Notes: a model not told the origin generated them from the sequence alone. Shown: positions 5,808 through 23,857, numbered from the stretch's first letter. The stretch: 57,584 bases of DNA from an uncultured bacterium (GCA_964546145.1 CAZJIU010000003.1:1-57584); one strand, 5' to 3'. Numbers and translations are program-made.

Positions 5808-7481
5808 TCAGGTCTTGATCCATTTTGGAGATTTTCTGGAACCTGTATTTTTAATCAAATCCTTTTTACGTAGTGAGGTCAATAGATTATGGATCAAAAT
5901 AGATTTCTTATCATCATTAAGAACTTCTGGCAATTTATTCATTAATAGTTGATTAATCTCTTCACGACTTACCGGTCCATGATGTTGAATAAGCTCGAGA
6001 ACTATGTCACGATAATATTTTCTTTCAAGTCCACGTTTACGAATATATTCTGCTTTTAATCCTGTTACTTTTGCTACCTTAGTTGAGATATAGATATTTG
6101 GATATCTTCCCTCTACTAATCCCGTCTTTTTCAGCTTTTTGTAAATATCATTTCTTATTTTTAAACCCTTTTGAACCTTATCTAAACTCATTACTGCCCA
6201 TAAATCTAAATCTGTTCTGGCCATCAGTAATCTGGAGTAATTCTCATTGACAATCGTCCCATGAATTGTAACTAATACTCTCGACGAATCCGATAAATCA
6301 TAGTCAGGCATTGGAAAACAACGCTCTTTTTGCGTCAGGAACATTTTCTTAATTCCGCCTCCCTGAGTATCGATCATATTAAAATTTACCATTGCCTTTA
6401 CAAGTAGTGTATTTCGATAGATTTCTTGAGGTGCATCTTGTTGAATTACCCGTTCAACATTTCCTGGAAGGAAGCTTCCAACGTTAGAAAACAACAATCG
6501 GGCAGGCATTTCTACAAGAATAATACGACCTTTTAATGAATAATCCTGATGAGCAATACAGTTATGAAGCGCTTCGCGTAAAACCCATTCATTATATTGC
6601 TGTATTTCTATAGGAAATAAGGTTCCCCCAGGTAATTCACGAATGGTCAAATTGCGAATTTTTAATAATACTCTATCGACATTAACAAGAAATGGCGGAT
6701 CAAAATGTTCATAATCCTTTTCATTATTCTTATCGTCCTTCAAAATCCAGGTGATTCTGGCAACTGCTGGAGAAATCAAGGTTGCTGATTCGGGCTTACC
6801 CAATAGCAATATCGCGGTGTTGGTAATTGCTCCTTGAATTGCCAAACTGGTCTTGTTTAAAAAAGTTGTGTCGCCCCAATTATCAACATCATTTGCCCTG
6901 TTCGGAAATTTTACTTTATGTTCGCTCCGGGCTTTATGAATTGCTTCTGGATCAAGGTCATTTAAAGTAGCATTCTCACATATTTGAGCTGACCAATCAA
7001 TCTGACGCGACCAAATTACACGCTCCTTATCAGGATGATTTCTTAGCTCTGTTTTCGATGAACCTATGCGGATATATGCTGTACCTTTGAATCTCACTGG
7101 CTGATTATAAGCTGAATGTATTTCAAAAAGAACGACTCTTTTATTCTCTGTAGTAAAAGTAAAAGGAGTAAATCCTATATTCGGTTGCAGATTTGTAGAT
7201 AACCACAGTAATAATGACTGATTACCTTTACCCTTCTCTTTATCAGAGTAAGGATCGAAACTAGTACCTACAATTTGATGTGCTTGGTCGTCTATACCAA
7301 AAACGAGGTAACCGTATGGCTTTCCTAGCAAGCATGCCGAGTTGGATAATGCTGATAAATATTTTCCGATCTCATGAGATTCATAGCGATTTGATTTGAA
7401 TTCAATCCACTCACTTTCATTAGGTTCCTGGCGCAAGCGATTTAACAATGCAACTAAATCTGTAGTTTCCATATTGTCCAC
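5808..7481 (-). CDS. AlbA_2 (Schlafen-like) DNA-binding domain protein with an HATPase_c_4-like domain and a C-terminal wHTH (COG2865-type 'RecG-like transcriptional regulator')
   Basis: 557 aa. N-terminal ESEWIEFKSN...YLVFGIDD (AlbA_2 pattern). LREALHNCIAHQDYS (HATPase_c_4 pattern). The gene and its flanks are visibly more AT-rich than the neighbours. Confidence 0.6.
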   Translation of the reverse strand: MDNMETTDLVALLNRLRQEPNESEWIEFKSNRYESHEIGKYLSALSNSACLLGKPYGYLVFGIDDQAHQIVGTSFDPYSDKEKGKGNQSLLLWLSTNLQPNIGFTPFTFTTENKRVVLFEIHSAYNQPVRFKGTAYIRIGSSKTELRNHPDKERVIWSRQIDWSAQICENATLNDLDPEAIHKARSEHKVKFPNRANDVDNWGDTTFLNKTSLAIQGAITNTAILLLGKPESATLISPAVARITWILKDDKNNEKDYEHFDPPFLVNVDRVLLKIRNLTIRELPGGTLFPIEIQQYNEWVLREALHNCIAHQDYSLKGRIILVEMPARLLFSNVGSFLPGNVERVIQQDAPQEIYRNTLLVKAMVNFNMIDTQGGGIKKMFLTQKERCFPMPDYDLSDSSRVLVTIHGTIVNENYSRLLMARTDLDLWAVMSLDKVQKGLKIRNDIYKKLKKTGLVEGRYPNIYISTKVAKVTGLKAEYIRKRGLERKYYRDIVLELIQHHGPVSREEINQLLMNKLPEVLNDDKKSILIHNLLTSLRKKDLIKNTGSRKSPKWIKT

Positions 7482-7534: not shown

Positions 7535-8119
7535 CTACTGATAAAGTCTTTGTGTTATGATATATTCTTCCACCGCAGGTGGAACAAGCTCGCTAATATT
7601 GTCACCTCTAAAAACATTTGCTCGAATTATCGAAGATGAAATATCTATTAATGGACTATTTATAAAGAATACTTTCTCCAGAAATTCCTGCTTGACTGCT
7701 GACAGATTAAATCCCGGTCGCCGGGCGACTATCACATGAGCTTCAGCTAATATCTTTTCCGGTTGGTTCCAAGTGTGTAATTCCAGCAAACTGTCGGCTC
7801 CAATTAAAAAATAAAGCTCCTCACGCTTCAGGTTTCGTGCCTGCTTGATTGCCCGAATTGTATCAATTGAATAAGAGACGCCTTTGCGCTGAGTTTCCAT
7901 CTCCGAAATTTCAAAACCAGCTTTCCCCACTATTGCCAGTTTCAGCATTGCCAGGCGATCGGCAGTTGAACTGAGGGAGCGGCGCTGTTTATGAGGTGGA
8001 ATAAAAGCCGGAATAAATAGCACCGTGTCAATTCGCAGCTGCTCCCGGACACTTTCGGCAATCCTGATATGTCCGTTGTGCGGCGGATCGAAAGTCCCGC
8101 CGAAAAGACAGATACTCAT
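7535..8119 (-). CDS. nadD: Nicotinate-nucleotide adenylyltransferase
   Basis: 194 aa. GGTFDPPHNGH motif. Its start overlaps the bamD stop (ATGA at 8116-8119). Confidence 0.9.
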   Translation of the reverse strand: MSICLFGGTFDPPHNGHIRIAESVREQLRIDTVLFIPAFIPPHKQRRSLSSTADRLAMLKLAIVGKAGFEISEMETQRKGVSYSIDTIRAIKQARNLKREELYFLIGADSLLELHTWNQPEKILAEAHVIVARRPGFNLSAVKQEFLEKVFFINSPLIDISSSIIRANVFRGDNISELVPPAVEEYIITQRLYQ

Positions 8120-8913
8120 TGTTGAGCTTTCTTCTTTTCTCGCTCAATCTTGCGCAGCTCACGTTCATACAAACGCTGCAAATGATCCAAACGCTTTTGA
8201 ATCTCGGGACTATTCTTTTGTTTCTTGATCTCAGCTACTAGGGCAAAATATTGATCAAACTGACGCAGCTTAATATAACAATGCGCTTTCTCTAATTTGG
8301 CCGGTATTACCCACTCGGTATCGTAAAATTCTTCCAGCATTTTATCCAAATAGAGAATCGCCGGTTCCCACTCCTCCAGCTTGCGGTATAAGCGCCCACT
8401 TTCATAAACCTTACGCGCCAGTTTGTTGCGAATCTCTGTGATTTTACTCTCAGCCTCCGGACACCATTTACTATTCGGATAAGATTCGATGAACTCCTGA
8501 AAACTCTGGAGTGCTCTCAACGAACTGTTCTGATCCAGCGGATATTTCGGAGATTGTTTAAAATACGAAAGCGCAATCTTAAAATAAGCTTCCTCAACAA
8601 ACGGGCTATAATTATAGCGTTCGGTTAATTGTTGATACTCGGAAACGGCCAGGAGATATTCCTTCCGGTTGAAATAACACTCGGCGATATAATACTGCGC
8701 ATCATCAGCCAAATCCCCGCCGGGACTGTTAAGAATCACGAGATTGAAGTTATCCAGTGCAACTTCCCACTTCTTCTTCTGGAACGCCGCTTCACCCCGT
8801 TGAAAATAGAGATAAGGATCCAGACCGAGCTTTGGTTTTTTACCCGCACACCCAAGCCATAATAAACTGGTTATTAATCCCAAAGCCCAAATTAGTCTCC
8901 TCCGTCTCATCAA
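8116..8913 (-). CDS. bamD: Outer membrane protein assembly factor BamD-like TPR lipoprotein
   Basis: 265 aa. Lipobox LLWLGC. TPR-like repeats with the ADDAQYYIAECYF / YPNSKW pattern typical of BamD/YfiO. Confidence 0.7.
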   Translation of the reverse strand: MMRRRRLIWALGLITSLLWLGCAGKKPKLGLDPYLYFQRGEAAFQKKKWEVALDNFNLVILNSPGGDLADDAQYYIAECYFNRKEYLLAVSEYQQLTERYNYSPFVEEAYFKIALSYFKQSPKYPLDQNSSLRALQSFQEFIESYPNSKWCPEAESKITEIRNKLARKVYESGRLYRKLEEWEPAILYLDKMLEEFYDTEWVIPAKLEKAHCYIKLRQFDQYFALVAEIKKQKNSPEIQKRLDHLQRLYERELRKIEREKKKAQQ

Positions 8914-8960
8914 TCTCCTGTAACTATTACCCCAATTGATTATTATTCAAAAAAGATTGG

Positions 8961-9851
8961 TCAAAATGCCAGCGTTAAGGATATGCCTCGAATTGGATTT
9001 TTATAGCGAATATCCGTCAGTAAGCCCACGTGCCAGGAGACTTCCTGTTTTGGTTCGGAGGTATATTGTTTGGCAGCAATCTGGGCATGAAATGCACTGA
9101 AAAGGTGATTGAACATAATCACCGTGGCAAAATTGGTTGCCATCTTCAGCGCGTCATTGGAATCTTTGCGCTGATGCAAATAATGATTGCGGTCAGGAGT
9201 GATATAGACGGTATCACTTACCGTGCCCCCGCCATGAGTCACAAGATAGTCGTCCCAGCCACAGGCAAACTGATTATACTTGCCGATATTTTCATAAAAA
9301 TCGCGGGTTTTAACTGGTTCAATGAGACCGCCATCATTTAGTAAGGAATCATAAACTCCGTAAAAATCTTTATCAGTCATAAACTCCTGTTCGTTATCAT
9401 CCTTCTGATAAGTGATGTAAAGTGGATGAGTATGTTCTGGTCCACATAATTCGTTAGTGTCACTATACTTCATCCACTCATCAAAATCCCAGTGCTTATC
9501 GGCATATCTAATATATTTCTTTTCCAGATCATCGCCGGAATTCTTGTTGCTAAAATACATCAACCAGGAAAATATCTCGACACTACTAAATGCCAGAGCA
9601 CGCCATTTTGCGTGAGCATAGAATTCACCAGCACCGGGAAATATCGCCGAGAGTAAAAAGGCTTTGCCCGGTGATTTCTCATAACTGAATTCAAACGAAT
9701 CTTCGGGAACCGCATTAAATTTAAGACTACTTTCCAACATGCTGCGATCCGAATTAAGCAGCGCCTCGTTGGCAAGATATAGCTGACCATAGACCGCTGC
9801 CGGAAAAAGCATTCCGATCAGGATTGACATTAGAAAAAGTTTCCTTTTCAT
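8961..9851 (-). CDS. Hypothetical exported/membrane protein. The start is chosen at MKRKLF, preceded by GGAGG.
   Basis: Signal peptide. Hydrophobic segment with SAIFPGAGEFYA. The C-terminus ends ...ISLTLAF. No family recognised. The track ORF extends to 9872. Confidence 0.5.
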   Translation of the reverse strand: MKRKLFLMSILIGMLFPAAVYGQLYLANEALLNSDRSMLESSLKFNAVPEDSFEFSYEKSPGKAFLLSAIFPGAGEFYAHAKWRALAFSSVEIFSWLMYFSNKNSGDDLEKKYIRYADKHWDFDEWMKYSDTNELCGPEHTHPLYITYQKDDNEQEFMTDKDFYGVYDSLLNDGGLIEPVKTRDFYENIGKYNQFACGWDDYLVTHGGGTVSDTVYITPDRNHYLHQRKDSNDALKMATNFATVIMFNHLFSAFHAQIAAKQYTSEPKQEVSWHVGLLTDIRYKNPIRGISLTLAF

Positions 9852-9861
9852 GGTGCCTCCT

Positions 9862-12800
9862 CTATAATCCAAAAAGAATTGTTAAATAACTGCGCCACTC
9901 TTTACCATATTGATGGGCTATTTCCTGACTGTCCACCACCGTAAATTCGTCTAATCCGTACACAAAATCCAGACTAATTGCAGTGGGGTAGGCATAAAAT
10001 GAGAAACCGCTGAGTCGCAGCTGAATTCCCACATCCCGCTTGAAATCTGCGGTTATGGCTTTTACTATCCCGCCCGCATTCAGGGTAAATTCAGACCAGT
10101 TCATCCCCGGATAACCCTTGACTTTATTCCAGGCATTGCCGGCTTCAACATAAGTCGCCAGGAAAGCATTCTGCAGATCGAAGGACAACAATCGAATCTC
10201 CTTTTCCCGAAATAACGGAAATCTCCAGGTATAGTGCAGGCTAAACAGGTTGCGACCTTCGATACTGTAAAAAGGATAGCCGCGTAGTCCCGGCAATCCC
10301 CCGGCAAAAAAATTGAAAAAAGAATCAAGATCATACTTGGATATCCAACCAACCTGCCATCTAAAAGCTCCTACCAGTCGTTTGACCAGCGGATATTTGT
10401 GGTAGTACTCGCCTTCATGCTCGATTCTCCAGTAGTAATTGTTACGGAAATTAGTCTCCAGTGTGCCAAAATCCTCATTTATCCCAAAATCCTTAATAAA
10501 TTTATCATAATTCCGAAAAATATTAGTAGTCAAAATAAGCCCGTTATCGGGATTTGTTTCCTGGTTCACGATAGTCATCATTTTCTTAAATTGCCAGCTC
10601 AGTTTGAAGTCGAGTCCGCGGTAGTAATCGTAGGTAAAACCATTAGAATAAATTCCGGCTTCCCGAATTCTCTCATCAGTAGAAGTGCGATATTTTGAAT
10701 AAATAGCGTCCAGCCTAAATTGGTTGACACCCGTCATCGGAAGCGAAATACCACCAACCGCTTCGGTCAGGTAAAATGTATAATCCATCTCAAGTGGCCA
10801 GCCGTTATAGGTCGTCTCAAGATTTAATACACTGCGGGTGATATTATAAAACTCCAGATAGATTGTCGGATACCACTGATGATATTCCAATAGCGCCACC
10901 AAATCCCGGTCTTTCAGCCGATTAATTGATGCCCCACCAAGAATATTAAACCGTTCCAGAATCTCCGACGAATAAAAATAGAAACCTGGTTTCAGTGTCC
11001 CGTAATCCAGCATAATCCGCGGTAAAAAAAACATCCTCGAAAACTGGTCGCGGTATTTCACCGGTTCGACCGTATCAATCTGCGCCACGGTCATCATCCC
11101 GGGAATATTTTCTTGATAATTTGAATAGTGCGCCAATTCAGGCCCAATTGGCTTCGGTTCGGCGATCCTGGCAATCGCAAAGGCGCTGTTTTCAAATAAA
11201 GCATAGAGTAGCTCGCCTTTGTCATTCACCGCGGGCATGAAAGCCCCGCCGGTGACATTGGTTACGAGCTCTGTCTCACCGGTTATCAGAGACTTGCGAT
11301 AGATATTAAAAATCCCGGTCTTATCACAGGCAAAATACAGCCACTTTCCATCCGGACTGAAATAGGGGTGGCGGGAATCGTACACTGCATTGTCCAAATT
11401 TTCGATCTGATCGTTATTTAAATGATAGAGAGCAATATCTCTGCCGTGATCTATCAGATAATCGAATGCAATCGCTTTACCATCAGGTGACCAATTAGCG
11501 GTGAAAATTTCCAGGCCATCGGTATAATGGGTCAACTGCCGCGAATTTAGCGAATCCAGCTCCATCACGAAAAGGTTCGAGGTCCCATCCCGTCCGGAAA
11601 TGTAGGCAAGCTGTTTGCCATCGGGTGAGATTGCCGGATTATAAGCCCGTTCCCATTTCGTAATCTGCTTCTCGCGCCTTTTCTGAAGATCATAACAGTA
11701 AATATCATAATAAACATGCCCCTGTCGGTCAGGTTTGGAAACCTTTGAATAATAAATAAATCTGCCGTCCGACGAGACCGAGGTCCGTGAAGAGACCCGC
11801 GGTTGGATCATTTTACTCTTTTTCGTTCTCAAATCATAAACATATAAGCCAGTCTGGGAAAAATAGTCGCGACCTTTGTTGGAAAGCAGATAGACCAATG
11901 AGTCACCGCCCCATTCAGGGTAATACTGGGTTGTTGCATCGCTTATCAGGACCTCGCCGGTAACTTCATTTTGCCGAATAGTTGCGGTTAATTTCCCATA
12001 GTTATTTTCCAGCTGTTGCACCCATTCATGATGCAACTGCTTGCCGGAAATTCCGGTGGCCTTCTTTAAGGCTGAGTTGATCGAAAATTCAAAAGGTTGA
12101 GCGAGGACGGCGGCGAGATTGGAAATTACCTCTGGCCCAAAACATTCGGCGAGATACCTGACAAAAGCATAGCCCTGATTATAAACCGACTCGTTGCCAA
12201 TTCCCCGCTTCCCGAAAGAAGCCATCTGAGCTAAAGTCAGAATTTTACCATTCAGAGTCCGGTCACGCAGCAGCATATCGCGGTGTGAATCCCACAAATC
12301 GTTGGTTGTCCCGGGATACATATATTGCGCCATACCCTCCGCCAGCCACATGGGAATAACCACCCCGGGAATGGGATAGGAGCTGATTACCCGTGGATAG
12401 CCGTAGACTACGTCTTCGCGCTTCTCATCTTCATAATCAAGCACCTGAAAATAACCACCCGGTACCGACAGACCGAATTTCATCGCTTTCTGGAGTGACA
12501 CAATGTGGGTAAATTCATGGGTAATGACATCCAGCAACCAGTGATGATTGCCGCGCAAGGGGTAATCCAGCGGGGTCGCCCAGATTTCAATCTTGTTATC
12601 GTAATAATAGGCTGCGCCGTTGGAAATATCGCCGATATCCTTGATAACCAAATCGGTCTTTTGTTTGGGTTTATAATTATAAAACGAAGTAACCGGACCG
12701 TAGATAGCCTCAGCAATCTCGGCGCTCTTCCAGGCCGTCCATTCGGCTCCTTGATGATAATGGATTTCAAAGTGAGCCGTTTCAAAACTCAGCCATTGCA

Positions 12801-12915
12801 ATTCAGGATGATTGTAAGTCGCAAACTGAGCGGATAGATTAAGCGGAAGCCAAATCCAGAGAAAAGCGAGAGTGAAAACATAAGTATTTTTAAAACCTGA
12901 AAATCTATAAGTCAC
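9862..12915 (-). CDS. Exported multidomain protein: HExxH zincin (peptidase-MA-like) + PD40/TolB-type beta-propeller blades + C-terminal Omp85/BamA-type beta-barrel
   Basis: 1017 aa. GTG start overlaps the upstream stop (TAGTG). Signal peptide ...LNLSAQ. FETAHFEIHYH and VITHEFTHIV. Three SPDGK blades. FFAGGLPGLRGYPFYSIEG resembles the Omp85 loop-6 RGF/Y motif. Confidence 0.6.
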   Translation of the reverse strand: MTYRFSGFKNTYVFTLAFLWIWLPLNLSAQFATYNHPELQWLSFETAHFEIHYHQGAEWTAWKSAEIAEAIYGPVTSFYNYKPKQKTDLVIKDIGDISNGAAYYYDNKIEIWATPLDYPLRGNHHWLLDVITHEFTHIVSLQKAMKFGLSVPGGYFQVLDYEDEKREDVVYGYPRVISSYPIPGVVIPMWLAEGMAQYMYPGTTNDLWDSHRDMLLRDRTLNGKILTLAQMASFGKRGIGNESVYNQGYAFVRYLAECFGPEVISNLAAVLAQPFEFSINSALKKATGISGKQLHHEWVQQLENNYGKLTATIRQNEVTGEVLISDATTQYYPEWGGDSLVYLLSNKGRDYFSQTGLYVYDLRTKKSKMIQPRVSSRTSVSSDGRFIYYSKVSKPDRQGHVYYDIYCYDLQKRREKQITKWERAYNPAISPDGKQLAYISGRDGTSNLFVMELDSLNSRQLTHYTDGLEIFTANWSPDGKAIAFDYLIDHGRDIALYHLNNDQIENLDNAVYDSRHPYFSPDGKWLYFACDKTGIFNIYRKSLITGETELVTNVTGGAFMPAVNDKGELLYALFENSAFAIARIAEPKPIGPELAHYSNYQENIPGMMTVAQIDTVEPVKYRDQFSRMFFLPRIMLDYGTLKPGFYFYSSEILERFNILGGASINRLKDRDLVALLEYHQWYPTIYLEFYNITRSVLNLETTYNGWPLEMDYTFYLTEAVGGISLPMTGVNQFRLDAIYSKYRTSTDERIREAGIYSNGFTYDYYRGLDFKLSWQFKKMMTIVNQETNPDNGLILTTNIFRNYDKFIKDFGINEDFGTLETNFRNNYYWRIEHEGEYYHKYPLVKRLVGAFRWQVGWISKYDLDSFFNFFAGGLPGLRGYPFYSIEGRNLFSLHYTWRFPLFREKEIRLLSFDLQNAFLATYVEAGNAWNKVKGYPGMNWSEFTLNAGGIVKAITADFKRDVGIQLRLSGFSFYAYPTAISLDFVYGLDEFTVVDSQEIAHQYGKEWRSYLTILFGL

Positions 12916-15900
12916 TAATGAATAACCATAATTTTGATAATTTTGCTTTCGGTTTTGCTGCCGGAGGTGGCTTTAACCACCGCAAAATAAACGCCATTGG
13001 CGACGCCGCCGACGCTCCACTCGATCTCATTATAATCACTTACGAGGGGGTGAGAATCCTTAAATGAAGTAATAAAATCTCCGGCGAGATCGTAGATATT
13101 GATCTCAATATTGCAGTCGGCATTCGGATAATAGCGAATTGCCGTGCGGTCGTTTTTCGTCGGATTGGGCCAGTTGAAGGTTTTCTTCTTATTAAGCAAA
13201 CCGTTGCCCGTTACCATACTGCTCTGCGATTTTTTAGAATAGAAGAAACTTTGGCAAGGATTACCGCTGCTGCAATACCAGGCATCCGGCGACAATGGTT
13301 GATCGGTGAGATACAAACCGATCAGCCGGTTACCGTCCCGATTCGCTGTCAGCAAAAACGTTCCCTTCGCATTCTCCATCAGGACTGATTGATCACTCTG
13401 GCTATTCGGCAAGGCGCGTGGATAGCCAGCAATCAAACGACCGCGATAGTTATAAGCCAAAATCCCGATATCTTCCAAAGTAACGACAATGTCTAAAATC
13501 TGATCGCCGTCAATATCACTGGTGAGCAGGTGTGGAGCAAAGGACTTGTCAGAATGCTGATTGGGAACCGAGATCGGGAAATTGCTCTCCAGAACCAGGG
13601 TTTCATTAAAGGCAAAAATTTCACGCTCGTTTTTCGCCAGGATCTCTACTCGCCCGTCACCGTCAATATCGCCAAATGCCAGTGTCGAATCGAAATTACT
13701 ATTGTAATAGTAACTTACCGGCGTCGCACTCCGAAAATCCCGGATAAGATGGAGCTGATCAGGATAATTAATAACTAAATCTATCTGATCGTTTTCATCA
13801 AGGTAAGCCAATCCAATTACCGCTGAGCCCATTTTTAGATCGGGAACCAAAACTTCAGTTTCGAGTGTGGTAGGTTTAATCTGTACTATCGAACCGGCGT
13901 GGGTGTCGCCTAATAAAACCGTTCCGTCGCTAACAAACTGGTAAATCGGAAATTGGAGATTTTGACTCTCAACTGCATTTGAATTCGGCAGATATTTTAC
14001 CAGGAAATAATTATTTGACGCCTCGTCGAGCATGCAAAAGAATAGCTCATTTTGAAAAGTGCAGATATTCGAAATCAAGTGCGTTCCGGGAACAATCTGG
14101 CCCACATCCGAATTGATTGTCCCATCTCCATTAATCGAATATTTATATATGAACAAAGCATCTTTCTCGAATGACGACTTTGTGATACAAAATAGATAAT
14201 CGCTGCCATTCTGGCAAGAAAGTGTAAAATGTTCACCATAACCAAGAGTGCGGGACATAATCAAATCACCAGATTCGTTGAAAGTATAGTATTCATATAT
14301 TCCATATTTTTCGGTAGTATCCTCAGCTATTATTTGTGTTGCCCATTTATCAGTAACTACTAGTTCATTGTAGCTGTCGGTCGAATCGAAATTCACCGGA
14401 AATAATTGTAAGTTCGAAATCATGCTGGAGTGTGTTCGGAATCCTTCAAGATAGTAGCTGTCTTTAATTCGAAAACTCATCACCGAATCGGCCGGTCCGA
14501 TACTATCTACGGCGATGCCGGTAAATGCTCCGTCATAACTGCGGGCAGAAGGATTAGTGTAATCCGTGAAGCCGACCCGTTTGAGGTCATCCTGCGAGTA
14601 ATCGGGATTCATATCCCAAAAGCCCTCGTTCCCTGCAAACCAGGGATCAAAATACCAGCCGTTATCCACATTGGCGCCAATCAGCTGCGATTCATAACCC
14701 AGGTCCTGCGCACCATCGCCTTCCTCTAGATCCACGCCCCGATGATTACGGTCTGCATTCACCCGATTTTGGGCAATATTGGCGTCAATGATCGATTGAT
14801 CAATGTGCCAGATCAACAAACCCGAACCAGGCAAACCCACATCGTAGCGCGGTACCCCAAGGAATATGCCTGCAGTTGAAAATTCAGCTCCGATCGAATC
14901 GAAAATCAGTGGTAATAATGCCGGCCAATCCTTCTCGCCATTATCAACATAAATCTTATATTGAATACTATCAAGATAAACTCCAGGACGAACGTGATTA
15001 TAACGATTTTCTACCAGGAAGTACTCATTGTCATTAATCGGGATGCGCCAGAGGGTTGTATCGGAACCGGACTCGGCATGCGGCAGCTTGACATTCTGAT
15101 AACCATTAGCAAAAACGGGCATATCCCAGCCCATAAATTCGCGCTCCCAGGCAGACGGGAAAGACGGTACCAATCCATTCAGATTCGCCGATCCCTGATC
15201 CATTAGCCCAAATCTCCCGATGCCTGTTCTGCCGGTTTCGGTATCGTAGAGTCCGGGCAGCCCCAGAAAGTAGCCCATCATTAACGCAAAGGTGCCATTG
15301 AGTCCGATCTGATAATCACAGGGAATTTCGGCTCCACCGAAAACATCTTCCCAATTGGGATAGAAAAGGTGATTCTGTGACTCTGGCAAGATAATTCCGC
15401 GATCCACCGGAAGATAATCTGCAGGCAAACCAACCGCGGCATAATAATTTACCAAATCGCCGGGATTCAGATAGGCGGAGGGAATATCATAAGGCGTCGG
15501 ATCAAGAAACAACTCGAAATCCTGACCGACCCCGGCATGAAAAACGACAACAAGATGATACTTACTGAAATCAATATCAGAATCCTCAGTCGCCAGATGA
15601 ACTGCCTCAACGAATAGTTCTGTCAGGCGAATGTCAATCGAATCCTTTTCCAGGAAAGGATGATAGTATGCCATTTGATGCGGCAATTGATAGACAGCTG
15701 AGTTATCGACAGGAAAAACCTCTGATTGCAGGGTATCAATCACGACCTTGCCCCGAGAAGCATGTCGGTAAAAATTAGCTAATGCCTTCAAATGATCTTT
15801 GAAGTAGGCATTATTATGCGGAGCCGGATCTACAATTGGAAAATTATCACACGGCAAACTGGCTGAGGTGAGAAATTGACCATCGCCGGTAGTCACCGGA

Positions 15901-16076
15901 TCATCATCCGGTTGGAAAGCAACCCGCAAGGCGCAGATCCGGATTGGATTGGGGATTGTAAAAGTATTTCTGATTTCTGATTGAATTGGTCGTAATATTG
16001 GCGCGACAACCCGCTGGGTTTTACTGAATGCAAGAGCGCAAACTGGGAGCAAAAATAGGATTAATTGTCGTTTCAT
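12915..16076 (-). CDS. T9SS cargo: M6 (immune inhibitor A)-like domain with a degenerate zinc site + FG-GAP/VCBS repeats + T9SS C-terminal sorting domain
   Basis: 1053 aa with a signal peptide. GTFALMMGYFLGLPGLYD sits where M6 enzymes carry HExxHxxGxxD. YFLVENRYNH, GLLIWHID and VDLEEGDGAQDL are M6-like. DIDGDGRVEIL and DIDGDQILDIV are FG-GAP. The tail NWPNP...IYDLAGDFI...GVYFAVVKA...IKIMVIH is CTD-like. Confidence 0.65.
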   Translation of the reverse strand: MKRQLILFLLPVCALAFSKTQRVVAPILRPIQSEIRNTFTIPNPIRICALRVAFQPDDDPVTTGDGQFLTSASLPCDNFPIVDPAPHNNAYFKDHLKALANFYRHASRGKVVIDTLQSEVFPVDNSAVYQLPHQMAYYHPFLEKDSIDIRLTELFVEAVHLATEDSDIDFSKYHLVVVFHAGVGQDFELFLDPTPYDIPSAYLNPGDLVNYYAAVGLPADYLPVDRGIILPESQNHLFYPNWEDVFGGAEIPCDYQIGLNGTFALMMGYFLGLPGLYDTETGRTGIGRFGLMDQGSANLNGLVPSFPSAWEREFMGWDMPVFANGYQNVKLPHAESGSDTTLWRIPINDNEYFLVENRYNHVRPGVYLDSIQYKIYVDNGEKDWPALLPLIFDSIGAEFSTAGIFLGVPRYDVGLPGSGLLIWHIDQSIIDANIAQNRVNADRNHRGVDLEEGDGAQDLGYESQLIGANVDNGWYFDPWFAGNEGFWDMNPDYSQDDLKRVGFTDYTNPSARSYDGAFTGIAVDSIGPADSVMSFRIKDSYYLEGFRTHSSMISNLQLFPVNFDSTDSYNELVVTDKWATQIIAEDTTEKYGIYEYYTFNESGDLIMSRTLGYGEHFTLSCQNGSDYLFCITKSSFEKDALFIYKYSINGDGTINSDVGQIVPGTHLISNICTFQNELFFCMLDEASNNYFLVKYLPNSNAVESQNLQFPIYQFVSDGTVLLGDTHAGSIVQIKPTTLETEVLVPDLKMGSAVIGLAYLDENDQIDLVINYPDQLHLIRDFRSATPVSYYYNSNFDSTLAFGDIDGDGRVEILAKNEREIFAFNETLVLESNFPISVPNQHSDKSFAPHLLTSDIDGDQILDIVVTLEDIGILAYNYRGRLIAGYPRALPNSQSDQSVLMENAKGTFLLTANRDGNRLIGLYLTDQPLSPDAWYCSSGNPCQSFFYSKKSQSSMVTGNGLLNKKKTFNWPNPTKNDRTAIRYYPNADCNIEINIYDLAGDFITSFKDSHPLVSDYNEIEWSVGGVANGVYFAVVKATSGSKTESKIIKIMVIH

Positions 16077-16137
16077 GATTCTGCGGGTGGAACAAGGTGC
16101 TAATGATCCCGATTTTAGCGAAAGTTCAAAAAATCTC

Positions 16138-17400
16138 CTAAAATTTGATATCCAATGAAAAAATCATAGTATTCGCTCGGGGGTGTCCCGTATTGCCAGC
16201 AGTATAGCCAAAATCAAAGCCTAATCCGGCATAGCGTAAGCCAGCACCAAAGGTCGGCACTGGCCATTTATTGTCTACCAGAATCTTACCGGTTTTATCA
16301 TATAAAAACCCCATTCGAATGGCAAACAGATCGGAATACCAGTATTCGACCCCCAGGTTATGCACTAATTTATCAAATTCCTTTTGAAGCGATCCATCGT
16401 TTGTATCACCATCCGTATCGGCTTTATTGCCCCACTTGTTCTTGCCACCACCGACATCCTTGCCGATTCCATCCGCATCGGAATCGTGTAACAGCAGCCA
16501 GTCATCTACCCAGGAGGTAAAAATGCCAAAATACCAATCGTCAGTATAAGCCGTTTCCCGTTGACCATCCTTATTGTATTCACCAGCAGCACCAACATAA
16601 TGACCATTTTCATCATAATGTCCAATCCGCTCATCGCCATCAATATCCCGGTTCGGATAAGCAGCCACCAGTAATTTATTAACATCATAGGCAATCGTAA
16701 CGCGGTTGTATTCACCACCAAAAGTATAATTAAAACCCAATTTCAGGTTGGTCGGCATCGGATCCGCCTGAGCCACATCAATAAAAGCAATCTTGGGTCC
16801 GATGTTAGCTATTGTAGCCCCAAGGGTTAAATTTTTCAAGAGGAACTGGCGTTTGATATAACCCACATCAAAGGCAAAATTGGTCGAGGTACCTTTTCCA
16901 AGTTCGGCACCAGCTCCCTGATCAGTTAGATGCTGGTGAACCATTTTCACGCTTATACCGATGCTCGAAGTGCGGGTCAAAGCCGTCCCGTAAGATCCGG
17001 TAATTGCCATCATATAAGAAGCAAAAGTTCCTAAGTAGTTGGCATATTCATCCATCCGGTCCTGTTCACCAAGATTCAGCAGGATAATGTGACCACCAAC
17101 AGTGCCAACATTTTTAATAAAGTGCCGGTAGCCAAGAAAATCATAATAGAGGTCGCTGGCTAAATTGGGCAGCCAATTTACATGATTCAAAGCCAATTCA
17201 CGACCTCTCATAAAACCTAATCCAGCCGGATTCCAGTAGCTGGCGAAGGCATCGTCAGCCAGCGCAGCTCCTGCCTCACCCATGCCGCAGGCACGCGCTC
17301 CGGGATTAATCAGCAGCCAGATAGCTCCAGCTTCACTCTGGGCTAACAGAGATCCAACAGATATTGTTAACATCAAAAATATCGCAGAGATTTTTTTCAT
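16138..17400 (-). CDS. PorV/PorQ-family-like outer-membrane beta-barrel with Asp-rich (thrombospondin type-3-like) Ca-binding inserts
   Basis: 420 aa. Signal peptide ending LLAQ. GARACGMGEAGAALADDAFASYWNPAGLGF N-terminal signature. DIDGDERIG, DSDADGIG and DTDGDTNDG. C-terminal ...FSLDIKF. AGGAGG lies upstream of the ATG. Confidence 0.6.
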   Translation of the reverse strand: MKKISAIFLMLTISVGSLLAQSEAGAIWLLINPGARACGMGEAGAALADDAFASYWNPAGLGFMRGRELALNHVNWLPNLASDLYYDFLGYRHFIKNVGTVGGHIILLNLGEQDRMDEYANYLGTFASYMMAITGSYGTALTRTSSIGISVKMVHQHLTDQGAGAELGKGTSTNFAFDVGYIKRQFLLKNLTLGATIANIGPKIAFIDVAQADPMPTNLKLGFNYTFGGEYNRVTIAYDVNKLLVAAYPNRDIDGDERIGHYDENGHYVGAAGEYNKDGQRETAYTDDWYFGIFTSWVDDWLLLHDSDADGIGKDVGGGKNKWGNKADTDGDTNDGSLQKEFDKLVHNLGVEYWYSDLFAIRMGFLYDKTGKILVDNKWPVPTFGAGLRYAGLGFDFGYTAGNTGHPRANTMIFSLDIKF

Positions 17401-17414
17401 TGATTCCTCCTGAG

Positions 17415-17448
17415 AACAAAAAACCGAATTATAAATCGAATCCGGTTT
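17415..17448 (-). terminator. Rho-independent terminator between the Trm112-like ORF and the PorV-like gene
   Basis: On the minus strand: AAACCGGATT-cgatttat-AATTCGGTTT (10 bp including one G-U), followed by a T-run. Confidence 0.6.
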
Positions 17449-17601: not shown

Positions 17602-17766
17602 TCAGAACGACTCGGCCTCATCAATCAACATAATGGGAATATCATCCCTAATCTCATATTTCAGGCGACAATTATGACAGATCAGTCGGGCATTCTCCCG
17701 ATCATACTCTAGCTCGTTTTTACATTTCGGACATACTAATATCTGGAGCAGCTCCTCTGAAATCAT
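17602..17766 (-). CDS. Trm112/YcaR-family small zinc-ribbon protein (UPF0434)
   Basis: 54-aa ORF below the track cutoff: MISEELLQILVCPKCKNELEYDRENARLICHNCRLKYEIRDDIPIMLIDEAESF. The two CxxC pairs and the IPIML(I)DEA tail are the family signature. Confidence 0.75.
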   Translation of the reverse strand: MISEELLQILVCPKCKNELEYDRENARLICHNCRLKYEIRDDIPIMLIDEAESF

Positions 17767-19643: not shown

Positions 19644-20073
19644 GTTGGTGAATTTTATTGACTCGTTGCTGATGGCGACCGCCCTCCCAACCGGTTTCCA
19701 GCCAGGCAGTCAAAAATCGCTTGGCCTGATCGGCATTAAGATGATCGGCACCAAAACAGACTATGTTGGCATGGTTATGCTGGCGGCTTATCCGGGCTAC
19801 TTCCTCAGAATAGGCCAAAGCAGCCCGAATACCAGGTATTTTGTTGGCCGCAATTGACATCCCTATCCCACTGCGACAGATTAAAACTCCAACATCGGCT
19901 CTCTGCTGATTAACCTCATCGGCAACCAGCACGGCATAGTCAGGATAATCATCGGCTTGCTCGGTAAAGGCACCGCAATCAATTACCTGATGTCTCTGGG
20001 ATTTGGCATATTCTACCAACGCTGCTTTGAGGGTAATCCCGCCGTGATCGGCACCAAATGCAATCTTCATCAA
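19618..20073 (-). CDS. rpiB: Ribose-5-phosphate isomerase B
   Basis: 151 aa. [10 protein letters not shown] and [15 protein letters not shown] motifs. Confidence 0.9.
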
Positions 20074-21362
20074 TCAGTACTCACATTCACATCAATCCAA
20101 CTATAACAATCCAATCGGGGTCGAAAAACGGTACGCTCCTTCCCGCTGGCGTCGTACCTATTCATAAACCAATCTTCACGGGATGGAATCAGATACTCTT
20201 TGAGCAGGTCAAGCCGAGACTGGACCCCATATTCACCCAAACCCTTAGCCTTGCGGTAATCGTCATATGCTAATTTATATACCAGCTTGTCTTCAAAACT
20301 CTTCGGCTGACGTGAACTACTGTAATATTCAGCAGCCATATAAAAAACATCGGCGCGGATTTTATATGCCAAGCTGGAGTTTCCCAACGATACCGCTTTA
20401 TTCGCCCAGGAGTAGGCAGTCGGAAAATCAACCAGGTTAATATACATCTTAGTAATATCATCCAGAATACTCAAATCCTTCGAATCAATATTTTTGGCGA
20501 TATGCTCATAAGCCCCTGCCGCCTCCTTGTAGCGTCCCATTGTCTTGTATAAGTCGGCTAATTTTTCCCAGGCATCCTTATTGCGTAAATCCAGTGCGGT
20601 AACTTTTTTATATACCTCAATTGCCTTATCATACTGGAGCTTATCGGTTAAGGCTTTGGCATATTCGAAACCATACCGGATATTGGTTGGATTTTTTTCC
20701 CATTGTTCCTGGATGATTTTCGTGGGATCAATCCCCAGCTTATTGAAGACAACCCGCTGGTCATTGAGCGCCTGCTCATCATTGGGATTAATTTCCAGGA
20801 TTTTTTCGATGCCCCAGCGCATATCCTCAAAACGATTCTGTTCGAAGCAGAGCTTAACATACTTCCGGTAGAGATCAATATTATCAGGCTTGAGCTCGAT
20901 TATCTTTTCATATTCCCTGATTTCCAGATCATATTTTTTCTGGATGTGATAAATATAGGCGATGTTCTCGAGCAGGAACATATTGTCCGGCAAATACTTT
21001 TGACCTTCGATAAAAACATACAGGGCACTATCATAATAGACATCAGCAGTTTTGGCTAATTGAAGATATGCTCTTCCGAAAAAGGGATAAATATCCTGGG
21101 CATATTCTTCCTGACAGCCATATTCCAACATCTTTCGATAATTTGAAATTGTGCTGCGCCAATTCTGATTCTGGTAGTAACTATAGGCAAAATTCAAATA
21201 GAGATCACATTTATCCCGATCAACATGTTGCTTTTCGGGTGTCGGGGTAGCGACTTGTTCGATTTCAGTCAGGTCCTCCGGTGGAACACAATTTATTTGG
21301 ACAAGTATCATGGTAAGTCCTATAATAATAAGCCAGCAATACCTCAAGATTGGATTTTTCAT
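20070..21362 (-). CDS. TPR-repeat protein, probably an exported lipoprotein
   Basis: 430 aa. N-terminal hydrophobic segment ending ...VQINC. Multiple TPR-like units. Confidence 0.55.
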   Translation of the reverse strand: MKNPILRYCWLIIIGLTMILVQINCVPPEDLTEIEQVATPTPEKQHVDRDKCDLYLNFAYSYYQNQNWRSTISNYRKMLEYGCQEEYAQDIYPFFGRAYLQLAKTADVYYDSALYVFIEGQKYLPDNMFLLENIAYIYHIQKKYDLEIREYEKIIELKPDNIDLYRKYVKLCFEQNRFEDMRWGIEKILEINPNDEQALNDQRVVFNKLGIDPTKIIQEQWEKNPTNIRYGFEYAKALTDKLQYDKAIEVYKKVTALDLRNKDAWEKLADLYKTMGRYKEAAGAYEHIAKNIDSKDLSILDDITKMYINLVDFPTAYSWANKAVSLGNSSLAYKIRADVFYMAAEYYSSSRQPKSFEDKLVYKLAYDDYRKAKGLGEYGVQSRLDLLKEYLIPSREDWFMNRYDASGKERTVFRPRLDCYSWIDVNVSTD

Positions 21363-21384: not shown

Positions 21385-22593
21385 TTAATCCCGTCTATAT
21401 TTACGAAACCACAATTCCCCTGTAGTCACGCTGACATAGAAAGACAGGACCTTCTCTTTGCCAGCAATATTATTCAGAAAACCATCCCGAACTGAACTAA
21501 CAACAGCCAGGTCAATCCGACTTAAGTTATAATGAAAGGGTATTCCCATTCCCAGACTTATTCCAGTTTCCGTTAATCCTCCGGCTTGATAGATTGAGCC
21601 CGATTTATAATACACTCCCCCTCTTAAGATTAACTTCCGCCAGATTGGTTCGCCAAATTTCGGTGGTCGGTTACTTTCAATTCCAATTCCTACGAAGGAC
21701 GAGTTTTGGGCTTTAATTGGTTCGAAAACAATAAAATCTGCAAACATTGTTTTCGGAACCATAGAATAGGCAATATCCAAAGAAAAAGCAAGTACATCGT
21801 GCCACTTTTTCCGCAGTCCTAACTGTAAATGAGAAGGAAAGGAAATCCTGCTTTTCGCCGTCGTACTGTCAGGTCCGTAATAAAAATCATAGATGCGATA
21901 GGTATTAAAATTCAGCGGCCAATCCAGATAAAGAGCCAACTCTAAATCCTGGCGCTTGTTAGCCCAATAACTTCCCAGACCAAGCTGAGTTCCCTCAATA
22001 TCGGTGTACTTACTAGTATAACTATTAATACTCCCGTCATAATCAATGTCAGTGGCTATTTTAGAGAGGTAGCTGCCAAAGTTAACCATGATTTTAAGTC
22101 CCAGGCACCATTGAGGATTGATCCGGTAACCACCGCCCATGAAAAATTGGGAAATGCCGCCCTTAATATTCACATCTGCTGAATAATAAACCGGTGTTGC
22201 TCCAAAATCAGTTGAATCCACAAAAGTTTTTTGAGCAACCATACGGGTCAACGGGGCAATCCCTATCGCAATGCCGATTGACTTCTTCACCGGCACCTTA
22301 AAAGAAAAACCGAGGAACTGAGTCAAAAATTGGTTTGCAGTACCTTGTTCATCGGTTAGTCCGGATGAACCCAGCTGTCCCTGGATCGAGGTTGTGACAA
22401 AACCATTCCAGAGGGCTGGATTCAGCAGATTCAGACTGATTGAATCCGGCATAGCTAAACCGGTATTGCCTAGAGCAATACTGCGAACCGAGAAACTTGG
22501 TGATGGCATCCCAAAGCCATATTGAGCATAATTGGAATTCTGTCCCCACAATATCCCGGTTAATCCAATCCACAATAGAAATCGCTTACCCAT
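21385..22593 (-). CDS. Putative outer-membrane beta-barrel protein (PorV/PorQ/FadL-like N-terminal motif)
   Basis: 402 aa with a signal peptide. RSIALGNTGLAMPDSISLNLLNPALW. Alternating beta-strand pattern throughout. Confidence 0.45.
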   Translation of the reverse strand: MGKRFLLWIGLTGILWGQNSNYAQYGFGMPSPSFSVRSIALGNTGLAMPDSISLNLLNPALWNGFVTTSIQGQLGSSGLTDEQGTANQFLTQFLGFSFKVPVKKSIGIAIGIAPLTRMVAQKTFVDSTDFGATPVYYSADVNIKGGISQFFMGGGYRINPQWCLGLKIMVNFGSYLSKIATDIDYDGSINSYTSKYTDIEGTQLGLGSYWANKRQDLELALYLDWPLNFNTYRIYDFYYGPDSTTAKSRISFPSHLQLGLRKKWHDVLAFSLDIAYSMVPKTMFADFIVFEPIKAQNSSFVGIGIESNRPPKFGEPIWRKLILRGGVYYKSGSIYQAGGLTETGISLGMGIPFHYNLSRIDLAVVSSVRDGFLNNIAGKEKVLSFYVSVTTGELWFRKYRRD

Positions 22594-22597
22594 AGAG

Positions 22598-23857
22598 CTA
22601 TTGTTCTTTCATGGTTAGGATTTCAATATAGGGACGACTTTCAGCTGGATTCAGTGCACTGGCATTATAGAAACTCAAGGTAGCAATATTCAAGTCACCA
22701 GTCGTTGCCCAAAGAACCAGCCCATAGTTCTCAACATAATCACTGGTAATCCCTTGAATGATACTTTTTATATCAATATCAACATAGGCACTAGTATCTG
22801 AGATTGAGTGATAAAGATCGTAGGAATATTGTTTCGGATCGTAATCCGGGTCTCCGAACTTAGCAGAATCAAGAGCAGTAATGTAGAGATAATAAAGCTG
22901 TCCATATAGCTGGTTTGCTTGAGAATTGATCGTCAGATGGAGATTTGCCTTGGCAATCAAGGCATTCTTATCAGGAATTATGTTCTGCAGATTGAATTTT
23001 AGAAAAGCATGAGCTGACCTGCCGGAGCTGACGAACAACGCCGTTTCCGATTTAAAACTTTTCTTATATTGAATAATCGAGAGATCACTGCTAGGTAAAA
23101 TCTTTATGGTAGCAGTATCACCGTCCTCAAAATAACTCACCTGCAGCCAGGGATCATACGAAGTCTCCTTGGAATATAAAGCCTGGATGCAGGCGATGTC
23201 ACTGGATGCCGGTTGAAGTACCAACGTATAATCGGTATTCGTTTCGTCGTACCAATTACAGACTAATTGGGTATCCAGCGCTACTGAAAAGGTGTCTTCC
23301 TTCTCACAAACCAGGGTTGCTAAAAATGTCAGATTATAACTATCGAGATTAAAATCAAGCACGGTACTGCTGTCTTCCGTCCAGGGATCCACTCCTCCAT
23401 TTAATAATTGAGAAATGGAAATTTCTACCGTGGGGGTGTCATTCCCTAACAGGTAGAACTTGTGAAAAGATTGCAGATTTAGAGTCACCCCGATCAAGCT
23501 ATCCAGCGTATCAGGTAATGCCGCGAGATTATCGAATTTCAGCAAGGTATAAGTTTGGACATTCTCGTCATTGCCAACAAAAAGAATATTGGAGCCGCCC
23601 GGATAGGGTGTTAATGTCTGTTGGCTATACTCGATTGAATCGGTGGAATCGGGAATTATATAGGTGTTAAATTCCAGCGGGGCAACATTTGATTGCAGAA
23701 CGGGTATCTTTTCTTCACAATGAATCATCCATAATAATAGGCTAAGAATCCCCAGCTTCGTGAGATAATGTAAAAATGGGATACTTTGTTGACACGTTAA
23801 ACGCCCCAAATGACGTTTCGGTTGACTAGATCCGTTCCACAATCCTGACAATTTCAT
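22598..23857 (-). CDS. Hypothetical exported protein with two DNRLRE-like (LKFxL) modules
   Basis: 419 aa. TLLKFDNLAALPDTL...VTLNL and AFLKFNLQNIIPDKNALIAKANLHL resemble the DNRLRE-domain pattern. Hydrophobic leader ending ...MIHC. Confidence 0.35.
   Translation of the reverse strand: MKLSGLWNGSSQPKRHLGRLTCQQSIPFLHYLTKLGILSLLLWMIHCEEKIPVLQSNVAPLEFNTYIIPDSTDSIEYSQQTLTPYPGGSNILFVGNDENVQTYTLLKFDNLAALPDTLDSLIGVTLNLQSFHKFYLLGNDTPTVEISISQLLNGGVDPWTEDSSTVLDFNLDSYNLTFLATLVCEKEDTFSVALDTQLVCNWYDETNTDYTLVLQPASSDIACIQALYSKETSYDPWLQVSYFEDGDTATIKILPSSDLSIIQYKKSFKSETALFVSSGRSAHAFLKFNLQNIIPDKNALIAKANLHLTINSQANQLYGQLYYLYITALDSAKFGDPDYDPKQYSYDLYHSISDTSAYVDIDIKSIIQGITSDYVENYGLVLWATTGDLNIATLSFYNASALNPAESRPYIEILTMKEQ

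Follow-up and report, generated by a model that had tools for sequence, protein, structure and literature searches.

Conserved linkage of porV with genes for an inactivated M6-like cargo, a peptidase-propeller-Omp85 fusion and a DUF5683-like protein: a candidate extension of the type IX porU-porV pair in FCB bacteria outside the Bacteroidia

Why should genes for a PorV-like barrel, a type IX secretion system (T9SS) cargo, a metallopeptidase-Omp85 fusion protein and BamD, a lipoprotein of the β-barrel assembly machinery (BAM), follow one another in the genome of an uncultured bacterium? This arrangement is found on the minus strand of a stretch of 57,584 nucleotides (GCA_964546145.1, CAZJIU010000003.1:1-57584; hereafter the window), the host lineage of which is Candidatus Marinimicrobia (Neomarinimicrobiota/Fidelibacterota). 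A preliminary description of the DNA proposed a five-gene outer-membrane operon, with bamD as a member, in which components of two outer-membrane biogenesis routes would be co-encoded. The conserved unit is nevertheless one of four genes, porV, M6i (encoding an inactivated M6-like cargo), a HExxH-PD40-Omp85 fusion gene (the fusion, below) and p296 (encoding a 296-residue protein), in this order, and not five. We give about an even chance to the reading that this outer-membrane cassette extends the porU-porV pair of the T9SS attachment complex in non-Bacteroidia members of the FCB (Fibrobacterota-Chlorobiota-Bacteroidota) group, where it would act as an accessory module for T9SS or outer-membrane processing.

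The evidence for a unit comes from 80 genome loci encoding relatives of the fusion, in each of which homologs of every window gene were located; counts of neighbors use only those loci whose contig flank reaches far enough. PorV and M6i are encoded upstream of the fusion in 54 of 58 informative loci and p296 downstream in 60 of 64, order and strand being constant. As an unbiased check, every open reading frame (ORF) of the 80 loci was clustered all against all. Only four families are common to the 38 Marinimicrobia-type loci and the 42 others, which derive from KSB1, Calditrichia, Ignavibacteria and metagenome-assembled genomes of Bacteroidota, namely the fusion (80), M6i (74), p296 (63) and PorV (58). 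The cassette spans Marinimicrobia/Fidelibacterota, KSB1, Calditrichia and Ignavibacteria-type Bacteroidota, and all remaining flanking genes differ between these groups: glyA/nrdR and bamD/nadD in Marinimicrobia, accB/accC/gcvH in KSB1 and Calditrichia, and porU in Ignavibacteria-type loci. In the last group the gene order is porU-porV-M6i-(small ORF)-fusion-p296, the flanking ORF of about 1330 amino acids (aa) being a PorU sortase (955.9 bits against NF033707, cutoff 420, in the Ignavibacterium locus L070). The arrangement was recovered from three independent starting genes. A search seeded with M6i led to long contigs (L084, L085) with Peptidase_C25 (PorU), PorV, M6i, an ORF of about 225 aa, the fusion and a DUF5683-like gene, and one seeded with p296 led to fusion-p296 in Latescibacteria and Zixibacteria contigs, the contig end cutting off the upstream side. 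Spacing is tight in all lineages, with a median M6i-fusion gap of -1 nt in Marinimicrobia and fusion-p296 gaps of at most 20 nt.

Such a neighborhood might still be fortuitous, or purely historical and devoid of shared function. The plausible gene set of the 57.6-kb window has its ORFs of 150 aa or more on the minus strand without exception, in dense packing with unrelated housekeeping genes, so that co-orientation and tight packing alone are no sign of an operon or of a functional unit. Against a chance association, the four genes keep their order at 37-40% protein identity when every other neighbor changes, and the three starting genes agree; the odds of it are therefore slim. That the neighborhood is not due to chance, as had been proposed, is borne out by the conservation of the upstream pair and of p296 in several phyla with no other shared flank.

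Some of these loci carry further genes beside the cassette. An additional ORF of about 225-250 aa lies between M6i and the fusion in Ignavibacteria-type loci (L070, 9261-9947; L080, 9159-9920; L084, 13275-13943; L085, 12189-12872); it is lipoprotein-like (…FSGC in L070), has a faint FlgD_ig match in L084 and is absent from the window. In the Latescibacteria contig L086 (3820-6029), genes for another DUF5683 protein and for a FlgD_ig protein come after p296. In the Zixibacteria contig L087, a 553-aa Omp85 protein bearing POTRA domains (7636-9297) is encoded 5 kb downstream of fusion-p296, after an unannotated 1088-aa ORF.

Regarding the first gene, its product belongs to the PorV/PorQ family (241.6 bits against NF033709, cutoff 90; 90 bits against Pfam PorV, cutoff 27), and its residues 1-420 align with residues 1-395 of PorV from Flavobacterium johnsoniae (6H3I_F, E = 3.5e-26). 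The scores obtained with the PorQ (76 bits) and PorV2 (53 bits) models are far under the PorV score. Judged by its orthologs, the cassette barrel is best read as a canonical PorV, because the L070 ortholog passes the cutoff of 250 of the PorV equivalog model (293.4 bits; 217.6 bits for the ortholog in L042) and directly follows the PorU sortase gene. Of the initial label "PorV/PorQ-like", the family assignment holds and the PorQ option becomes improbable. The pairing of porU with porV is seen in L059, L070, L075, L077, L078, L080, L084 and L085; porU is adjacent neither in the window nor in the other Marinimicrobia, KSB1 or Calditrichia loci. An additional Asp/Gly-rich loop at residues ~299-331 (DDWLLLHDSDADGIGKDVGGGKNKWGNKADTDG) sets the Marinimicrobia PorV apart from its F. 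johnsoniae counterpart and from that of Ignavibacterium (371 aa); it cuts the match to the profile into two stretches, so that the score falls under the equivalog cutoff.

The product of the second gene combines a TIGR03296 M6 domain, a propeller-like region of Pfam FG-GAP (FG-GAP/VCBS) matches and a Por_Secre_tail. Over its full length (residues 9-1053 against model positions 8-1043) it matches NCBIfam NF052323, "T9SS-dependent M6-like inactivated metalloprotease", with 537.6 bits; the model cutoff of 600 is passed by the Ignavibacterium ortholog in L070 (794.7 bits), and the L042 ortholog reaches 581.7 bits. The window protein is thus an ortholog of NF052323 members by synteny and sub-threshold by score. 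It shares with them the loss of HExxH and the type-A sorting domain; unlike the linkage described here, NF052323 names a cargo family and not a system. In accession order this model adjoins those of PorU2 (NF052324) and PorV2 (NF052325). At the zinc site the window protein reads LMMGYFLGLPG, and in the alignment of 61 orthologs xxxGxxLGLP is retained in this column with the H/E/H residues lost, no HExxH being present anywhere in M6i (0/61). With the motif missing from all 61 and the sorting domain scoring over cutoff, the protein is rightly called a T9SS cargo with a dead M6 domain. A single ortholog carries HQFGH (HQxxH) at the degenerate site, with both histidines and no catalytic Glu; going by this motif, it may be an intermediate, zinc-binding but inactive. 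The C-terminal domain (CTD) of M6i shares 27-29% identity with PorU CTDs (29% with one Ignavibacterium PorU), which is ordinary for any pair of type-A CTDs and does not single out a specific resemblance to the retained CTD of PorU. The PorZ model has no match to M6i at E < 0.01.

The third gene encodes the most unusual protein of the cassette. Its architecture (Table 1) was derived from an AlphaFold2 model built on 68 homologs (pLDDT 88.5, pTM 0.86), which remains a prediction. Since the propeller (TolB, S9 peptidases) swamped the matches in a Foldseek search with the whole model, leaving barrel and peptidase unseen, domain-only sequence profiles were used instead. Conservation within the protein is highest in the peptidase domain (0.67-0.76 per 50-aa bin). 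The 68 sequences all have H133, E134 and H137, and at least 90% of them have E193; HExxH and W[LF]AEG are retained in all 73 fusion orthologs of the loci. E193 is the probable third zinc ligand, and the fusion carries the intact HExxH...E of a gluzincin-type (clan MA) zinc metallopeptidase, which is predicted to be active. The Pfam Peptidase_MA_2 model gives 27.9 bits, below its cutoff of 32.4, and no credible relative of the domain was found in the PDB with the domain-only profile. The propeller is matched by Pfam PD40 (68 bits) and, under its cutoff, by the TolB model TIGR02800 (134 bits); its resemblance to TolB is also seen in PDB sequence matches (E = 4e-9) and with Foldseek (E = 1e-11). 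The barrel passes the Pfam Omp85 cutoff marginally (25.8 bits, cutoff 24), and several fusion homologs carry PF01103 in precomputed Pfam lists. In the L6 loop G876, G879 and Y880 are invariant among the 68 sequences, all variants conforming to G-[LIM]-[RK]-G-Y; the corresponding (V/I)RG(F/Y) motif has been described for BamA (PMC12611786).

Could the fusion simply be the divergent BamA of this lineage, one of the conditions under which the preliminary description would itself have fallen? An Omp85 barrel of 16 strands, the RGY motif in L6 and the adjoining bamD gene of the window speak for it. On the other side, no POTRA domain is found in the fusion by Pfam or NCBIfam models, and the confident structure model has only peptidase, propeller and a linker of 40 residues ahead of the first barrel strand, the N-terminal 590 residues being made up of conserved zinc peptidase and TolB-like propeller. 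Moreover, the barrel-only profile is nearer to TamA (E = 8e-4 to 2.5e-3) than to BamA, the match to which is marginal (E = 0.44), and FCB phyla are reported to possess a Bacteroidota-like BamADGH machine (PMC12611786). The fusion as BamA was accordingly rejected on the absence of POTRA, and we give this identity next to no credence. From its sequence and predicted fold, the fusion is best taken as a true Omp85-superfamily member that is not a BamA in disguise.

This combination has a precedent in the WD40-Omp85 subfamily cataloged from sequence by Heinz and Lithgow (2014; PMC4104836) as a TolB-like propeller with an Omp85 barrel and no POTRA, a definition to which the fusion conforms, the propeller standing N-terminal to the barrel in place of POTRA. 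The subfamily was later summarized as having "WD40 and peptidase domains" (PMC11358297). Unlike the present locus, no gene neighborhood, T9SS link or invariant HExxH...E is reported in the searched text of PMC4104836.

The orientation of the fusion in the outer membrane bears on another alternative, in which the barrel exports its own peptidase and propeller in the manner of type Vd proteins such as PlpD, and the enzyme then works on extracellular proteins together with M6i as a substrate-binding pseudo-enzyme. This surface proteolysis, already suggested in the preliminary description, has a precedent in PlpD, a patatin displayed by an Omp85-type barrel (PMC4104836), which shares with the fusion a 16-strand barrel of this type joined to an N-terminal enzyme; in addition, M6i is a T9SS surface cargo, and both proteins are peptidase-like. 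PlpD, however, possesses a POTRA domain and does export its passenger, whereas the fusion has neither a PlpD-type POTRA nor an extended linker, and a folded peptidase plus propeller of 550 residues would make a poor passenger. In the model the barrel has its long loops where an odd-numbered strand passes into an even-numbered one, and the RGY loop connects strands 11 and 12, so that under the usual Omp85 topology the N-terminal domains are expected to be periplasmic. The cassette is, furthermore, single-copy among housekeeping genes and not among genes for nutrient uptake. Export of the enzyme to the surface is, in our estimation, improbable. By the same predicted topology, the peptidase of the fusion and M6i are probably on opposite sides of the outer membrane. 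The earlier expression "live/dead metalloprotease pair" is apt insofar as HExxH is kept in one protein and lost in the other; a duplicated pair was rejected, the two peptidase-like domains having no detectable homology (hhalign probability 0.2%), and the expression is a description and not a mechanism.

The fourth gene encodes a protein whose match to Pfam DUF5683 (PF18935), a family of unknown function, is below the gathering cutoff (23.8 bits, cutoff 26.7), many of its homologs carrying PF18935 in precomputed Pfam lists. The conserved S-x3-PG-x-G-x2-Y motif is present. Its predicted structure (pLDDT 84.9) is mainly helical with a C-terminal β-hairpin and has no Foldseek match at E <= 0.001 and no fold match in the PDB. 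The C-termini of the orthologs conserve an alternating-hydrophobic strand with terminal F/W, resembling the β-signal of outer-membrane proteins. p296 is taken to be secreted and, by weak sequence similarity, DUF5683-like.

The gene downstream of p296 raises the most tempting connection, that BamD couples a BAM-like Omp85 fusion to the T9SS within an operon of five or six genes, as first proposed. The gene is a genuine bamD (138.9 bits against TIGR03302, cutoff 81.4; N-terminal …LLWLGC lipobox read from the sequence), followed by nadD (188.5 bits against TIGR00482), and BamD is known to partner BamA, itself an Omp85 protein. It follows p296 in 33 of the 61 loci, with a median gap of 28 nt, and in the window the gap of 47 nt holds no terminator-like site; a BamG-like gene lies some 4 kb upstream of the cassette. 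All these 33 loci, however, belong to Marinimicrobia/Fidelibacterota, and bamD/nadD are missing from all 42 cassette loci of other lineages, as are glyA and nrdR (0/42). Within the phylum, glyA, nrdR, nadD and lepA are as syntenic as bamD. BamD binds POTRA 5 of BamA, and the fusion has no POTRA. As the adjacency is limited to one phylum in which housekeeping neighbors are equally conserved, and the fusion lacks POTRA, a BAM-T9SS bridge is unsupported. BamD as a cassette member was rejected on this distribution, which largely refutes the coupling and makes it very unlikely; bamD is only a local neighbor, and the co-encoding of two outer-membrane biogenesis routes reduces to synteny at the level of the phylum. 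In the Marinimicrobia host, bamD and nadD may, from the spacing of the genes, be co-transcribed with the cassette.

With regard to the Bacteroidota BamADGH machine (PMC12611786, PMC12578637), the window is alike in encoding BamD and a BamG-like barrel a few kb from the cassette, and unlike in that no cassette protein matches a model of a BAM subunit and that bamD is adjacent in Marinimicrobia only. A BAM preparation from F. johnsoniae contained no T9SS components (PMC12611786). The BamG-like gene (21385-22593, minus strand) encodes a FadL-family barrel that matches the BamG model over its full length and below threshold (149.1 bits, cutoff 250), and housekeeping genes separate it from the cassette. 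Directly upstream is a gene for a 419-aa DNRLRE-domain protein (22598-23857), which might be a BamH-like canopy partner of this barrel, and directly downstream one for a 430-aa TPR protein (20070-21362); synteny of the BamG-like and TPR genes extends over 21-25 loci of Marinimicrobia. The BamG-like gene fits the wide distribution over FCB phyla that has been reported for BamG and BamH (PMC12611786).

How might the four proteins act together? M6i would be exported through the T9SS by its type-A CTD and then kept on the cell surface by PorV, serving there as a binding subunit without catalytic activity; the analogy is with P. gingivalis, in which PorV retains PorU and PorQ retains PorZ. The fusion would be seated in the outer membrane, its zinc peptidase and TolB-like propeller turned towards the periplasm, and the propeller would gate the access of substrates to the active site. 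Propellers attached to peptidases, as in the tricorn, DPP-IV and prolyl-oligopeptidase families, commonly limit access to unfolded substrates, and this precedent together with the periplasmic topology makes the fusion plausibly an outer-membrane-tethered processing or quality-control protease. p296 could dock on the barrel of the fusion, possibly via its β-signal-like C-terminal hairpin. At the outer membrane, the cassette proteins would jointly process, or control the quality of, T9SS cargo or other proteins of the envelope. A stronger form of this proposal, which we hold to be less likely than not, is that M6i, the fusion and p296 are genuine unrecognized T9SS components, forming an ancestral or alternative sub-complex for cargo processing or attachment around PorV (and PorU) in non-Bacteroidia FCB.

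Known systems offer partial parallels. As in the T9SS porU-porV pair of Bacteroidota (P. gingivalis, F. johnsoniae), the cassette opens with PorV, and the Ignavibacteria-type loci show the classic porU-porV order; the difference lies in three conserved genes after porV (M6i, fusion and p296), which are not mentioned in the T9SS literature searched. M6i recalls PorU and PorZ in its large size, its CTD and the position of its gene next to that of its probable anchor barrel; unlike them, it has a dead M6 domain with FG-GAP repeats and neither the C25 sortase fold nor a PorZ match. BepA would resemble the fusion in being a periplasm-facing HExxH protease with a protein-interaction domain at an Omp85 barrel. 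It differs as a soluble or peripheral M48 protease with a TPR domain at the BAM complex, the protease of the fusion being covalently joined to its own barrel; no sequence relationship between the two was found, the sole M48_BAM_BepA match (19 bits) being the TPR protein beside the BamG-like gene.

Several observations weigh against an extension of the porU-porV pair. The window PorV scores 183.8 bits with the equivalog model, below its cutoff of 250, and M6i stays under the NF052323 cutoff of 600, so that it receives no automatic NCBI naming; the likeness of its CTD to that of PorU is no more than expected between any two type-A CTDs. A periplasmic peptidase and a surface-held M6i would be in different compartments, and a direct partnership between them is not obvious. 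Full-length relatives with 28-33% identity to the fusion occur in isolation, without PorV, M6i or p296 nearby, and so does a subclade of four loci (L046, L055, L063 and L073), which argues that the basic function of the fusion is independent of the cassette. In this subclade the fusion (1066-1109 aa, at ~9.9-13.2 kb, ending …FGFTLFD) comes after genes for a carbamoyltransferase, TatC, a small lipoprotein-like protein and an ArsA-like ATPase.

These isolated members, in contexts as unrelated as that of TatC, ArsA-like and carbamoyltransferase genes, are what a general role would lead one to expect, the fusion and p296 forming an envelope quality-control protease with a BepA/DegP-like role, merely co-located or co-regulated with porV-M6i and no part of the T9SS. 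The same can be said of the size of the fusion family, which reaches beyond the cassette with its 881 cluster representatives (E <= 1e-30), and of the Latescibacteria and Zixibacteria contigs, which show the fusion-p296 part. Heinz and Lithgow moreover suggested that Omp85 proteins bearing an enzyme serve in periplasmic quality control, and speculated on a BamA-BamB-like fusion in view of the look of WD40-Omp85 (PMC4104836). Against a general protease, the porV-M6i linkage is kept in nearly all informative loci across lineages that have no other common neighbor and reaches porU, and the overlap between the M6i stop and the fusion start suggests coupled expression. We consider this alternative unlikely and retain the accessory T9SS or outer-membrane processing module as the preferred reading.

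Coming to the layout of the window, the six minus-strand ORFs and their junctions were correctly placed in the preliminary description, the junctions having been confirmed by direct reading. The porV start is led by AGGAGG, with AGGAGGaatcaATG on its 5' side. Between porV and M6i there is an intergenic gap of 61 nt; the M6i stop and fusion start read TAGTG (1-nt TAG/GTG overlap); the fusion and p296 are joined as TAG-aggaggcacc-ATG, a 10-nt gap including GGAGG; and bamD and nadD overlap by 4 nt (ATGA). The terminator proposed before porV was located as a hairpin with a T-run, the probable end of the unit that comes before it (a small Trm112-like ORF, nrdR and glyA). A scan of the window for such hairpins gave none in the intergenic gaps of the cluster, as had been claimed; the total of 18 matches is close to the 11 +/- 3.6 expected after shuffling.

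Table 1. Features of the cassette and its immediate neighbors, by position in the window
Feature	Position	Strand	Details
porV	16138-17400	minus	420 aa; T9SS outer-membrane shuttle/anchor barrel; first cassette gene
M6i	12915-16076	minus	1053 aa; T9SS type-A cargo
M6i, degenerate M6 zinc site	15240..15284	minus	LMMGYFLGLPGLYDT, residues 265-279, replacing HExxHxxGxxD
M6i, type-A C-terminal sorting domain	12918..13172	minus	residues 969-1053; PF18962 31 bits (cutoff 27); TIGR04183 33.2 bits (cutoff 23)
HExxH-PD40-Omp85 fusion	9862-12915	minus	1017 aa; GTG start
Fusion, predicted architecture	9862..12915	minus	signal peptide, gluzincin-like peptidase domain, TolB-like β-propeller, 16-strand Omp85 barrel; no POTRA
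Fusion, predicted peptidase domain	11971..12798	minus	residues ~40-315; alpha/beta in the model
Fusion, HEFTH zinc-binding/catalytic motif	12505..12519	minus	residues 133-137
Fusion, E193 in WLAEG	12337-12339	minus	candidate third zinc ligand
Fusion, TolB/PD40-type β-propeller	11161..11958	minus	residues ~320-585
Fusion, 16-strand Omp85-type barrel	9871..11031	minus	residues ~629-1015, end …TILFGL; 16 long strands in the AlphaFold2 model
Fusion, L6-loop LRGY motif	10276..10287	minus	residues 877-880, between strands 11 and 12; equivalent of Omp85 (V/I)RG(F/Y)
p296	8961-9851	minus	296 aa; fourth and last cassette gene
bamD	8116-8913	minus	adjoins the cassette, non-member
nadD	7535-8119	minus	housekeeping neighbor, non-member
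Terminator-like hairpin	17421..17448	minus	upstream of porV; 10-bp stem, 3 G-C pairs, then T-run tail TTTTTTGTTCTC

The rest of the window is of housekeeping character (lepA, glyA, nrdR, rpiB, mreBCD, pbp2, rodA, purH/N, kdtA, tatC, guaB), and no further T9SS or BAM gene was found in it or just beyond one of its ends, apart from the sub-threshold BamG-like gene. Between nrdR and the hairpin upstream of porV, a small ORF (~17604-17765, minus strand; …LLQILVCPKCKNELEYDRENARLICHNCRLKYEIRDDIPIMLIDEAESF) resembles a Trm112/UPF0434 zinc-ribbon protein, on a reading of its sequence. A 557-aa Schlafen/AlbA_2-domain protein (PF04326, 76 bits) is encoded between nadD and lepA (5808-7481, minus strand), where the G+C is lower (0.379). 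The distance from nadD to the lepA that comes after it is within about 80 nt in related loci such as L003-L005, and given this near-contiguity the Schlafen/AlbA_2 gene looks like a strain-specific insertion, possibly related to defense. At 37671-39170 (minus strand), a CDP-alcohol phosphatidyltransferase domain (residues 23-175) and an SRP54/FtsY-type GTPase domain (residues 297-495) are unusually joined in a single ORF of 499 aa.

Is the cassette already described? Searches of the literature on PorV2, M6-like or inactivated metalloproteases, DUF5683, WD40-Omp85 and the T9SS in Ignavibacteria or Marinimicrobia yielded no description of it, nor any work linking these families together or the Omp85 fusion to the T9SS or porU-porV. 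An apparent mention of "PorV2" in PMC10994853 was discarded, being "PorV" followed by a reference superscript. The initial statement that this is not a described system is therefore right for the four-gene linkage in the literature searched and not for its parts, since NF052323 and WD40-Omp85 had already been cataloged. Each part has a precedent, and what is new is the conserved linkage to porU/porV, i.e., an extended locus with uncharacterized conserved members.

To our knowledge, nearly all detailed work on the T9SS has been done in P. gingivalis and Flavobacterium. Other FCB phyla are abundant in oceans and sediments, and the three-gene extension of porU-porV, present in at least four major lineages, provides candidates for missing or alternative parts of their T9SS. 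The data remove the tempting bridge between BAM and T9SS mediated by BamD. The orphan WD40-Omp85 class, which has been without functional context since 2014, gains a testable one. If M6i, the fusion and p296 were indeed T9SS components, the fusion would be the first Omp85-family barrel in type IX secretion, and WD40-Omp85 proteins would gain a function.

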